This document shows, piece by piece, positions 1 to 745 of a stretch of DNA of 1,950 nt (the first letter of the stretch is position 1; each line of letters opens with the position of its first letter). Location: NCBI RefSeq assembly GCF_003334385.1, contig NZ_QOWN01000106.1; one strand, given 5' to 3'. This DNA comes from Escherichia coli (GTDB lineage Bacteria > Pseudomonadota > Gammaproteobacteria > Enterobacterales > Enterobacteriaceae). The notes under the pieces are model-generated. The model was given only the letters and a program-made list of their open reading frames with translations, was not told the origin of the DNA and did not search any database. The position numbers were made by a program, and so were the translations under genes.

Positions 1-234
1 GCTGCCGCGAAAGCAGGAATACTGCCGGAGGGTTTTTTCTGGACGGATGCGGAGAATAACGACGTCCCGATGACGGCTGGGGAGCTGATGGCACTCAGTG
101 AGGCGGCGGAGAAGGCGATGTTCACCAAAGGGATGGAAATTCATGTCAGACAGCGCACGATGAAAAAAGAGATTGAAGCGCTGGGTGATGCGGAAGCTAT
201 ACTGGCGTATAAGGTCGGCATGGCTGACAGGTGA
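1..234 (+). CDS. 3' end (77 codons plus stop) of a phage tail-fibre-region accessory protein with a DUF4376-like C-terminus; the 5' end lies outside the window
   Basis: Frame 1 is open from base 1 to TGA at 232-234. Translation: AAAKAGILPEGFFWTDAENNDVPMTAGELMALSEAAEKAMFTKGMEIHVRQRTMKKEIEALGDAEAILAYKVGMADR. GC is 33/60 in bases 1-60 (hand count). The W-x-D-x-x-N-x-x-V-x-x-T-x-x-EL pattern followed by an A/E-rich helical tail resembles DUF4376 domains seen in phage tail-fibre regions; this is from memory, not searched. It is probably absent from the ORF track because it is truncated and under 80 aa. Confidence 0.75.
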   Translation, partial: AAAKAGILPEGFFWTDAENNDVPMTAGELMALSEAAEKAMFTKGMEIHVRQRTMKKEIEALGDAEAILAYKVGMADR

Positions 235-260
235 AAAAAAGAGGGGCGCTCCAGCCCCTT
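234..260 (-). terminator. Rho-independent terminator oriented for minus-strand transcription (T0), convergent with the upstream + strand gene
   Basis: The minus strand reads AAGGGGC-TGGAGC-GCCCCT-C-TTTTTTT. The stem is 6 bp and GC-rich (242-247 with 254-259, plus a possible G241.T260 wobble) with a 6-nt loop, followed by 7 T (complement of A234-A240). On the + strand the hairpin is followed only by TGCTAC, with no T-run. Confidence 0.6.
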
Positions 261-361
261 GCTACAAAGCTATGGCTAAATAAAGAATACTCAGGTCGAG
301 GAAATGATCTGGCAATGATAATTAAAGGAGATGCAACGGCCTCCTTCACCCCTGTCAAAGA

Positions 362-388
362 TAAAAAACTGGGGAGTGCGTGCTCCCC
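362..388 (-). terminator. Rho-independent terminator oriented for minus-strand transcription (T1)
   Basis: The minus strand reads GGGGAG-CACGCA-CTCCCC-AG-TTTTTT-A. The stem is 371-376 with 383-388, the loop is 6 nt, and the 6-T run is the complement of A363-A368. Confidence 0.6.
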
Positions 389-456
389 GAGAGCATGATA
401 CTTGTGGTTGATAGTTATTTTTATCCGGCGACAAAGATATTGAGATGAGGTCGCGG

Positions 457-483
457 ATGCAATACAGAATTTTCGTATTGCAT
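457..483. promoter_or_regulatory. 9-bp perfect inverted repeat ATGCAATAC-N9-GTATTGCAT enclosing most of 16-mer copy 1 (operator-like site or RNA hairpin)
   Basis: Bases 457-465 are the exact reverse complement of 475-483, and the spacer is agaattttc. Copy 2 of the 16-mer lacks equivalent arms. Confidence 0.45.
462..477. repeat. Copy 1 of an exact 16-nt direct repeat, ATACAGAATTTTCGTA
   Basis: It is identical to 639-654, 177 bp away. The flanking bases differ on both sides (a461 vs g638, t478 vs g655). Confidence 0.9.
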
Positions 484-530
484 GGTAACTGCTGATTCCT
501 GAAACTGAAAGTCGTCATGAAACTGTAAGC

Positions 531-558
531 GAAAAAACGGGGAGACGGCACGCTCCCC
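531..558 (-). terminator. Rho-independent terminator oriented for minus-strand transcription (T2)
   Basis: The minus strand reads GGGGAGCG-TGC-CG(T)CTCCCC-G-TTTTTT-C. The outer stem is 539-544 with 553-558, the inner pairs are C546-G552 and G547-C551, and A545 is bulged. The 6-T run is the complement of A532-A537. Confidence 0.6.
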
Positions 559-638
559 AAGGTCATACATGAGATAGTGGTGTTTTTATAGTCGAAAGAA
601 TAATTGCATAAAAAGAGTGTAAATTAAACATTCAGGGG

Positions 639-654
639 ATACAGAATTTTCGTA
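639..654. repeat. Copy 2 of the exact 16-nt direct repeat, ATACAGAATTTTCGTA
   Basis: It is identical to 462-477. Confidence 0.9.
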
Positions 655-689
655 GGCTGAGGGATTGCTGAAAATAATTTAGTGCGTCC

Positions 690-711
690 TTCAATGGTCA
701 TTCAATGGTCA
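690..711. repeat. Perfect tandem direct repeat, 2 x 11 bp (TTCAATGGTCA)
   Basis: Bases 690-700 are identical to 701-711, read directly from the sequence. Confidence 0.9.
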
Positions 712-745
712 TCAGATTGTGCTGATGTAAACAGTTAAGCACAAT
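710..745. promoter_or_regulatory. Two overlapping, mutually exclusive inverted repeats: CATCAG/CTGATG (710-715 with 722-727) and ATTGTGCT/AGCACAAT (716-723 with 738-745)
   Basis: Both pairs are exact reverse complements. They share bases 716-727, so only one can form at a time. A weak minus-strand promoter, TTGTGC(744-739)-N17-CACAAT(721-716), coincides with the 8-bp arms. Confidence 0.4.

Follow-up and report, generated by a model that had tools for sequence, protein, structure and literature searches.

Serial leftward terminator-like hairpins and a diverged two-unit duplication between the tail-fibre assembly gene and eib in an Escherichia coli prophage

The spacer between tfa and eib

The window (the whole stretch of 1,950 nucleotides analysed here) covers the 3′ end of a tail-fibre assembly gene (tfa), a spacer, and the start of eib, a gene for a YadA-like immunoglobulin-binding trimeric autotransporter. 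All annotated genes in the examined stretch of the prophage to which the window belongs (L003) lie on the plus strand. No account of the eib upstream region, or of RNA originating from it, was found in the literature. The spacer was divided into three units, U1 (234–361), U2 (362–530), and U3 (531–715), and its features, together with those of the flanking genes, are as follows:

70–234, plus strand: 3′ end of the tail-fibre assembly gene (DUF4376 family; orf-191A in P-EibA); from the ORF list, and annotated in AF151091, PV340546, and NZ_CP053284
232–234, plus strand: tfa stop codon; from the ORF list
234–259, minus strand: T1, hairpin AGGGGC/GCCCCT (259→242) followed by U7 (241→235), abutting the tfa stop; from scan and energy
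323–348, minus strand: H2, the second hairpin of U1, with an A/U-rich tail; from the scan, its strength depending on the allele (low in that of the window, high in the other)
362–388, minus strand: T2, hairpin GGGGAG/CTCCCC (388→371) followed by U6; from the scan
389–458, minus strand: body of U2, with one minus-strand hairpin and an A/U-rich single strand before T2; from the alignment of relatives and the fold
458–482, no strand: perfect hairpin TGCAATAC-N9-GTATTGCA, which includes copy 1 of a 16-mer (462–477); from repeat and fold analysis
459–572, no strand: 114-nt presence/absence segment containing 16-mer copy 1 and T3, with GAT at both flanks; from the comparison of relatives
531–559, minus strand: T3, hairpin GGGGAGCG/CG-CTCCCC (559→538) followed by U6; from the scan
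639–654, no strand: 16-mer copy 2, 177 nt from copy 1; from the repeat search
686–712, no strand: 11-nt tandem repeat GTCATTCAATG, in 1 to 3 copies among relatives
711–750, no strand: inverted repeat (arms of 13 nt, gap of 14 nt) that hardly varies among relatives; from repeat search and alignments
749–777, minus strand: sigma-70-like site TAGTCA-17-AATAAT, a consensus match only (9/12)
901–939, plus strand: A/T-rich stem-loop upstream of eib, annotated as stem_loop in AF151091
1042–1950, plus strand: start of eib, the coding sequence of which runs past the window end; from annotation

Scanning for terminators returned five sites within 234–560, all on the minus strand, compared with 1.4 ± 1.3 expected from shuffled sequence; because 559→538 was counted in two overlapping registers, the five sites represent four distinct hairpins. 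Three of them are strong (259→242 with U7, 388→371 with U6, and 559→538 with U6) and one, 348→323, is weaker. The stems of T1, T2, and T3 consist of 6–7 base pairs, five of them G-C, and the U7, U6, and U6 runs follow immediately 3′ on the minus strand, which is the GC-rich stem and U run of an intrinsic terminator. On the plus strand, an A run precedes each stem and no T run follows it. In the window allele, hairpin energies were −11.6 (T1), −11.6 (T2), and −12.5 kcal/mol (T3), which, together with the scan, confirmed the proposal of the first-pass annotation that a GC-rich minus-strand hairpin and 6–7 U close each unit. The unit lengths it had given (roughly 129, 169, and 180 bp) are explained by the spacing of the terminators, and its view that the units hold no believable ORF stood, no conserved ORF having been found. 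From this build we infer that transcription would terminate at T1, T2, and T3 in vivo. Likeness among terminators could be the result of convergence.

Relationship of the units and their variation among relatives

The spacer had been described in the first-pass annotation as three diverged tandem modules, to be checked by aligning it with itself. When U2 and U3 were aligned, they scored 8.0–8.2 standard deviations above dinucleotide shuffles (z), and none of 500 shuffles was as good. Two collinear islands account for the signal: one is the terminator part (z 6.2), and the other is a 16-mer, ATACAGAATTTTCGTA, which recurs without mismatch at 462 and 639 (0.03 matches expected by chance). The stretches between them are only marginally similar (z 2.6 and 1.8). 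The U2 and U3 profiles were each other's best non-self match, albeit a weak one (E 0.2–0.7 in ∼0.4 Mb). The global U2/U3 identity of 84% over aligned pairs was set aside, as it is inflated by gaps. U1, in contrast, gave z −0.4 to 0.7 against U2 and z 0 to 2.0 against U3 and in most schemes aligned with neither better than shuffles do, so that the self-alignment bears out U2/U3 (z ∼8) but not U1 against either (z −0.4 to 1.0, in one scheme 2.0). Since U1 fails the shuffle test and U2/U3 pass it, the array is a diverged two-unit duplication next to an unrelated terminator-bearing segment, and not a family of three paralogues in which every pair aligns above shuffles. Tandem Repeats Finder detected the 11-nt repeat and not the units.

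Relatives of the locus comprised 41 distinct alleles. T1 and T2 were present in all of them, with a mismatch in the T2 stem in nine, where its energy is −4.6 to −7.1 kcal/mol (range over all alleles, −14.3 to −4.6). T3 was intact in 19 and degenerate or deleted in 22, and three kinds of loss were seen: substitution combined with removal of 2 nt, deletion of 114 nt, and deletion of 177 nt. The first left a T3 of −2.7 kcal/mol in the D2 allele; the second removed 459–572 from P-EibA and 12 further distinct alleles; the third, in locus L035, removed exactly the DNA between the 16-mer copies. The array is thus dispensable and eroding, T3 being intact in 19 of 41 alleles and an eib-like cassette in phage GER2 lacking U2 and U3 as well as either 16-mer copy. 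That the 114-nt indel is a mobile element (MITE) was rejected, as it has no terminal inverted repeats and only the 3-nt GAT at both junctions.

Within U1, the T1 and H2 stems were unchanged between two alleles that differ by 27% over the 63 columns between T1 and H2. In the same pair, the T1 loop is fully replaced (energy −12.2 kcal/mol in the second allele) and about half of the inner positions of H2 are changed, with the outer stem AAGGAG/CTCCTT identical in both; H2 reaches −16.8 kcal/mol in the other allele versus −9.6 in that of the window. The body of U2 (389–458) had a mean pairwise difference of 0.010, compared with 0.08–0.13 in adjacent blocks, a roughly tenfold lower variability, and the flanks of these alleles differ by 10–27%. 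Recent recombinational spread of one haplotype could also account for this near-invariance. The region upstream of eib was similarly constant (0.010–0.013 over 639–760), and near-invariance extended to 1041 in an alignment of 10 sequences; the eib coding regions of the relatives cease to align past about 1100. Overall, the variation falls into blocks that each have about two alleles, a pattern that mosaic recombination would produce and purifying selection would not. The conserved U1 stems and the invariance of 389–458 leave room for a function. Compensatory double changes in the stems were not seen among the relatives. The U2 hairpin has two single changes, which point to opposite strands, and some alleles with a T2 stem mismatch also have a change adding closing pairs.

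The same slot in sister prophages

The element was present in 27 of 5,426 complete E. coli genomes, always between tfa and eib, and no copy of U1–U3 was found outside this locus; when U1 and U2 were each compared with phages by BLAST, at E values up to 10, the same locus alone was returned. In an exact-pattern scan of GTDB species genomes with a 22-mer from the eib upstream region, one match was observed, in an uncultured Desulfocicer MAG contig.

In all related contexts that were examined (L083, L084, L085, and GER2), the tfa stop is abutted by a terminator built like T1, which shows that a leftward terminator pressed against tfa is a constant feature of this prophage group. What comes next to it differs: a convergent ykgJ-family gene, which the terminator ends (L083 and L085), two dead 3′ remnants of that gene in tandem, or a different adhesin cassette without U2/U3. 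Like others that bound morons or cargo in lambdoid prophages, the L083 terminator (E. coli O91 RM7190) shares with those of the window a GC-rich stem of 6–8 pairs followed by 6–7 U on the minus strand, and its type likewise sits directly against the tfa stop at a homology break between related prophages. In the window, however, no minus-strand gene is left to be ended, and three to four terminators instead of a single one stand in series. When L003 was compared with its eib-less sister L084 (E. coli JNEC-KY171), homology stopped at window position 247, inside T1, and resumed past the cassette; T1 thus sits at the homology break, the position expected of a cargo-gene remnant.

In L084, the slot is filled by two dead ykgJ-family 3′ ends in tandem, each consisting of a minus-strand terminator, a 3′-UTR, and the last codons (..LPEI*) of a ykgJ-like gene. 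These units, r1 and r2, are clearly related to each other (z 14) and to the intact 3′-UTR (z 7–11), which shows that tandem arrays of terminator-ended units arise at this site without sRNA function. A further remnant with its own terminator lies behind orf60 in L003 and GER2, and homology to the 3′ cassette of the ykgJ family was detected for r1, r2, and this module. Among 61 IMG/VR loci, 13 match only the 3′-terminal part of the ykgJ-family gene (residue 61 or later), one of them at a contig end. The L084 ends resemble U2/U3 in occupying the same slot head-to-tail with one minus-strand terminator per unit and no intact ORF, but they carry coding remnants and clear homology to the intact gene, both of which U2/U3 lack, and they are longer (∼230–270 versus 170–185 nt).

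Against the ykgJ cassettes, U1 scored z 3.3–3.8 and U2 and U3 z 2.3–3.0, mostly from the terminators. An nhmmer profile of the ykgJ 3′ cassette had no match in 234–715, and BLAST against the 61 ykgJ loci yielded nothing for U2/U3; the ykgJ 3′ cassette was therefore rejected as the ancestor of U1–U3. With neither a match to the cassette profile nor a BLAST relative elsewhere, a remnant origin of U2/U3 would rest on analogy and not on homology. Leftover 3′ boundary cassettes, offered by the first-pass annotation as its alternative, are thus favoured by the homology break at 247 and the tandem dead ends of L084, but the cassette profile misses U1–U3.

Proposed terminators at a cargo-exchange junction and the competing readings

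The reading that we prefer, at a probability of about one half, brings together what was observed: hairpins with U tracts that share one orientation and are conserved or lost among relatives, the break of homology inside T1, and the dead 3′ ends repeated in tandem in L084. On this reading, the spacer would hold leftward terminators where cargo was exchanged, and U2/U3 would be a duplication undergoing erosion. Region 234–715 would then be a stack of minus-strand intrinsic terminators joining the tail-fibre module to the eib cargo cassette. T1 and H2 may serve this prophage group as a back-stop against the tfa stop; whereas a terminator of the T1 type elsewhere ends a convergent ykgJ-family cargo gene, the gene would here have been replaced and its terminator-bearing end kept. 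U2/U3 would represent a diverged tandem duplication of a terminator-ended module of ∼170 nt, presumably in the course of erosion, T3 being lost repeatedly and T2 sometimes weakened. The hairpins may stop leftward transcription originating within the eib regulatory region or past it, for instance at the promoter-like site 777→749, before it enters the late tail operon in antisense, and the short terminated RNAs would be by-products and not separately promoted genes. As all annotated L003 genes are on the plus strand, leftward transcription in need of a stop is hypothetical, and both its source and the insulating role we infer from the sequence.

The array had initially been read as a possible set of paralogous sRNA genes. 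A narrower form of this idea, which we consider rather unlikely, is that at least one unit, most plausibly U2, is a trans-acting Hfq-type sRNA gene, transcribed leftward, divergent from eib, and ending at T2 (at T3 for the paralogue U3), with host or prophage mRNAs, possibly that of eib, as targets. The 3′ ends are canonical, with a GC stem followed by 6–7 U, and U2 has the makeup of an Hfq-type 3′ end, namely a terminator, a U tail of at least six, and an A/U-rich single strand ahead. The minus-strand fold of 362–480 consists of two 5′ hairpins, an A/U-rich single strand, and the terminator (z −3.1) and resembles the 3′ half of an Hfq-type sRNA; fold z-scores of U2 were −2.8 to −3.1, and U3 is less structured (z −1.0). 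Moreover, junk would not be expected to keep 389–458 near-invariant between flanks so divergent, the deletion alleles keep the U2 body joined to the invariant 639–780 with the sole promoter-like site, and some alleles with a mismatched T2 stem have gained closing pairs.

The original claim, however, had the 3′ ends right but finds little other support. No sigma-70-like promoter was found for U1 or U2 by consensus scan, which misses weak or activator-dependent promoters; candidates for U3 matched the consensus in 8/12 positions only, and the only minus-strand 9/12 site, 777→749, has its predicted start near 742, upstream of U3 on that strand. A search of Rfam 15 at a permissive threshold gave best scores of 15 and 11 bits (E 8–9), far below gathering scores. 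U1 is no paralogue of U2 or U3, no copy was found outside a single context, units are being lost (T3 in more than half of the alleles, with T2 weakened in nine), compensatory pair changes were not seen, the two changes in the U2 hairpin disagree as to the strand, and the block-wise variation is what mosaic recombination predicts. Similarly unlikely is the more specific proposal that the RNAs ending at T2 and at an intact T3 form a functional Hfq-type pair, duplicated in tandem, divergent from eib, and travelling with the adhesin cassette, which tunes eib or host surface genes with 389–458 as its working part.

Tandemly duplicated genes for Hfq-dependent sRNAs are known, such as OmrA/OmrB in enterobacteria and PrrF1/PrrF2 in Pseudomonas. 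As here, the units are adjacent and head-to-tail, with conserved terminator-proximal parts, a diverged remainder, and U-tailed terminators. For those pairs, however, promoters have been mapped, transcripts, Hfq binding, and targets are known, and the two copies are widely kept, whereas here the scan found no promoters and about half of the alleles have lost one copy. Hfq sRNAs from prophages are common in pathogenic E. coli (PMC4104026; PMC13502914; bioRxiv 10.64898/2026.05.13.724894), and those described (PasA-D, HnrS/EcOnc10-12, AgvB, AsxR, StxS, DicF, and IpeX) are also small, terminator-ended, and located in prophage regions. They lie near Q/lysis genes or within late genes, and the genomes that carry them number in the hundreds to thousands (bioRxiv 10.64898/2026.05.13.724894; PMC13502914), as opposed to the rarity of the present element and its confinement to the tfa–eib slot, and no sequence or Rfam match links the two.

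Alternatively, the repeats might act as DNA, with the 16-mers (462, 639), the inverted repeat 711–750, and the invariant upstream region as putative sites for a regulator of eib (IbrAB or nucleoid proteins) and the terminators as incidental, which seems distinctly improbable. The eib genes reportedly require the IbrAB island for expression. The 16-mer remained exact in both units while the remainder drifted, and it forms a hairpin in U2 and not in U3, which suggests that the sequence and not the structure was kept. Its 177-bp spacing corresponds to about 17 helical turns, and the region upstream of eib is near-invariant though the coding regions diverge past ∼1100. Two copies are nevertheless not required, as copy 1 is absent from the 13 alleles with the 114-nt deletion and one copy's worth is gone in L035; the eib-like gene of GER2 has neither, and no known operator consensus was recognised (LexA, CRP, and IHF consensus sequences, compared by eye only with the 16-mer and the inverted repeat, gave no convincing match).

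Very unlikely, finally, is that U3, and by descent U2, is a decayed minus-strand gene for a small protein plus its terminator. The protein would have 46 aa and a hydrophobic centre, and its frame would be whole in one family of alleles and disrupted in that of the window. The ATG ORF of the E2 alleles, MTIEGRTKLFSAIPQPTKILYLMIVLFALFLCSHSVAYKKAPLSHV, does stop 5 nt before the position of T3, and the same frame in the window allele is interrupted by TAA and a 2-nt indel. However, a Shine-Dalgarno sequence is absent, T3 is dead in those alleles that keep the ORF intact, and the ORF of the alleles with the 114-nt deletion continues through T2. What few differences the alleles show change amino acids. 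No match to a Pfam or PHROG family was obtained, and a search of 5.8 billion proteins yielded just two partial ones, probably encoded at this same locus.

If the spacer is indeed a row of leftward terminators at a cargo-exchange junction, it would provide a worked example of how cargo exchange beside tail-fibre genes leaves stacked, terminator-ended debris. Such debris mimics sRNA arrays, which would call for caution in predicting sRNAs in prophages from sequence only. Expression of Eib in wild strains is low and dependent on growth conditions (PMC4352079); were one of the units an sRNA gene after all, a small RNA would come with the Eib adhesin cassette itself, as an extra regulatory layer on a poorly understood virulence-associated adhesin.

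Leftward terminator hairpins between tfa and eib

The stretch originates from an E. coli prophage, in which a spacer separates tfa, a DUF4376-type tail-fibre assembly gene, from eib, the gene for a YadA-like immunoglobulin-binding adhesin. The same gene order occurs in P-EibA of ECOR-9 (AF151091), phage PhiR5_2 and strain SCU-104. Of 5,426 complete E. coli genomes, 27 have the spacer (225-720), always on the chromosome and frequently in several prophages of one genome; ~50 IMG/VR and metagenome contigs carry it as well. Wherever flanks were present it lay 3′ of tfa, and the eib upstream region came next where the contig extended far enough.

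Features of the spacer and its flanks
232-234, plus: stop codon of tfa (its last 54 codons lie in the window)
259→242, minus: terminator T1, U7 tail, −11.6 kcal/mol
348→323, minus: second hairpin H2, A/U-rich tail, −9.6 kcal/mol
388→371, minus: terminator T2, U6 tail, −11.6 kcal/mol
559→538, minus: terminator T3, U6 tail, −12.5 kcal/mol
564-701, minus: 46-aa ORF, intact in relative L015, fused in relatives L001 and L043
777→749, minus: the sole sigma-70-like site with 9 of 12 matches, in a nearly invariant region right of the units
1042, plus: start of eib, ~800 bp past the tfa stop

The first-pass annotation had described 234-715 as three diverged tandem units, each ending on the minus strand in a GC-rich hairpin with 6-7 U. 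The hairpins are real: a consensus scan returned five terminator-like sites (four distinct hairpins), all on the minus strand and all inside 234-560, where 1.4 ± 1.3 were expected. On the plus strand an A run lies ahead of every stem and no T run follows any, which makes the terminator design one-directional.

The threefold repetition holds for two units. U2 (362-530) and U3 (531-715) resembled each other with z ~8 over dinucleotide shuffles (0 of 500), whereas similarity of U1 (234-361) to either did not exceed that of shuffled sequence in most scoring schemes. Judged by the refuting self-alignment test that the first-pass annotation had proposed, U1 drops out, and U2 and U3 stand. One of the two collinear islands behind the U2/U3 similarity is the terminator part (z 6.2); the other is an exact 16-mer, ATACAGAATTTTCGTA, at 462 and 639, for which chance predicts 0.03 matches. 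Between the islands z was 2.6, and for the 5′ parts it was 1.8. Profiles of U2 and U3 each retrieved the other as top non-self match, albeit weakly. The core of the 16-mer, ACAGAATTTTC (minus-strand reading), also occurs in the tfa-adjoining terminator of another prophage (L085, 3708-3745), an 11-nt match at the corresponding position that is probably due to chance. Within 497-529, the window allele carries an 18-nt direct repeat (TCCTGAAACTGAAAG / TCATGAAACTGTAAG), and the other allele a hairpin (CCGGCAAC..GTTGCCCGG) in its place.

The same slot in related prophages

In the lambdoid prophages of O91 RM7190 and AR_0085, the gene after tfa is convergent, lies on the minus strand and encodes a ykgJ-family cysteine-cluster protein; its terminator (an A run, then a GGGG-type stem) directly abuts the tfa stop. 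E. coli JNEC-KY171 harbors a prophage of the same phage type as that of the window but without eib (L084). Homology between the two runs through tfa, ends at window position 247, inside T1, and restarts past the cassette. At that slot, JNEC-KY171 has two head-to-tail units, each consisting of a minus-strand terminator, 3′-UTR and last codons (..LPEI*) of a ykgJ-like gene, with z 14 to each other and z 7-11 to the 3′ end of the intact gene. Thus, dead gene ends do give rise to tandem arrays with terminal terminators at precisely this position. A 183-nt hypothetical protein annotated there (3811-3993) overlies one dead end and is probably an over-annotation. In phage GER2, an eib-like adhesin likewise follows tfa; it is accompanied by a single terminator and a 450-bp spacer of unrelated sequence that lacks U2 and U3. 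Taken together, these prophages indicate that a leftward terminator against tfa is constant, whatever the cargo.

Remnants of ykgJ-family genes
L084 3735-4235: a tandem pair of dead 3′ ends, located after tfa and before the next tail gene
L003 (the window's prophage) 8048-8066, ~3 kb to the right of where the window begins, and L147 (GER2) 4486-4504, minus: terminator GGGGAGCATGTTGCTCCCC plus T7, immediately behind the orf60 stop at the distal end of the eib cassette, then a 3′-UTR remnant

The post-orf60 stem is similar to those of T2 and T3. Among 61 IMG/VR loci, 13 match the 3′-terminal part alone of the ykgJ-family gene, one of them at its contig end. The alternative proposal, that the units are leftover 3′ boundary cassettes, gains from the break at 247 and the dead ends in JNEC-KY171, but a ykgJ 3′ cassette profile matched nowhere in 234-715. 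Pairwise, U1 reached z 3.3-3.8 to these cassettes, largely through its terminator, and relatives of U2 and U3 outside this locus were absent from the phage, E. coli and other sequence collections retrieved.

Block-wise variation of the spacer

The 52 homologous stretches aligned (41 distinct) vary in blocks with ~2 alleles each and sharp borders: the substitutions are not scattered but follow the mosaic pattern of phage recombination.

Mean pairwise difference
U1: 0.076
389-458 (U2 body): 0.010
495-572: 0.106
573-638: 0.126
639-760: 0.010-0.013

T1 and H2 are the best-kept hairpins. Two alleles differing by 27% across the 63 columns that separate them have both stems identical, with the T1 loop wholly replaced and about half of the inner positions of H2 changed. 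T2 is present in every allele; nine have a stem mismatch that leaves it at −4.6 to −7.1 kcal/mol, in most cases alongside a second change that adds closing pairs. T3 is intact in 19 of the 41 distinct alleles, degraded to −2.7 kcal/mol in eight (substitutions and a 2-nt deletion), and gone in 13, including P-EibA, through a 114-nt deletion (459-572; GAT at both junctions) and in one through a 177-nt deletion running cleanly from one 16-mer to the other.

An 11-nt tandem repeat (GTCATTCAATG, 686-712), with an ATG in each copy on the minus strand, occurs in one, two or three copies among the relatives. The sigma-70-like site has an inverted repeat (711-750; 13-nt arms, 14-nt gap) immediately downstream; the two hardly vary among relatives and may represent an operator with its divergent promoter. 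From 639 to 1100, which covers the eib upstream sequence and the codons for the signal peptide, loci with divergent eib coding regions are nearly identical (beyond ~1100 the alignment ends or identity falls to ~70-80%); this points to a conserved module, perhaps for regulation or recombination.

Possible transcripts, reading frames and the favored reading

No ORF in the units was convincing, as had been noted. In one allele family, the 46-aa ORF, with a hydrophobic center (MTIEGRTKLFSAIPQPTKILYLMIVLFALFLCSHSVAYKKAPLSHV), ends just before the T3 position, and T3 is dead in exactly those alleles in which the ORF is intact; in the window allele, a TAA and a 2-nt indel interrupt it. The ORF has no ribosome-binding site, no family match and no relatives elsewhere. 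A 91-aa minus-strand ORF (291-566) is taken to be a chance occurrence; it stays open across T3, U2, T2 and H2, and the 114-nt deletion of P-EibA-type alleles disrupts it.

That the units form an array of small RNA genes was the main proposal; a functional small RNA from U2 is unlikely. The minus strand of 362-480 is predicted to fold much like an Hfq-type RNA, with two hairpins and then an A/U-rich single-stranded stretch leading into the terminator (z −3.1), and the U2 body is nearly invariant. Against this, Rfam gave no match, consensus scans of the minus strand found nothing resembling a promoter ahead of U1 or U2 and at best 8 of 12 matches for U3, and the only better site lies to the right, at 777→749. 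Covariation was absent among the aligned relatives, and the U2 hairpin shows two single changes, which favor opposite strands. Hypothetically, one transcript from ~742, ending at T3 where intact and otherwise at T2, would account for the constant ends (639-780, 362-458) and the variable middle. A DNA-level regulatory role for the 16-mers is improbable.

The reading we favor, with a probability of about 0.5, is a leftward terminator stack at a cargo-exchange joint, in which T1 and H2 would be the conserved back-stop of the tail-fibre module and U2/U3 a tandem duplication, now eroding, of a terminator-ended module. Elements of this kind are already known; the present array appears to be undescribed, as AF151091 annotates just a stem-loop (901-939) and the post-eibA terminator. 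The likely effect of the stack would be to keep antisense transcription out of the late operon, where we infer both the termination and the source of that transcription.
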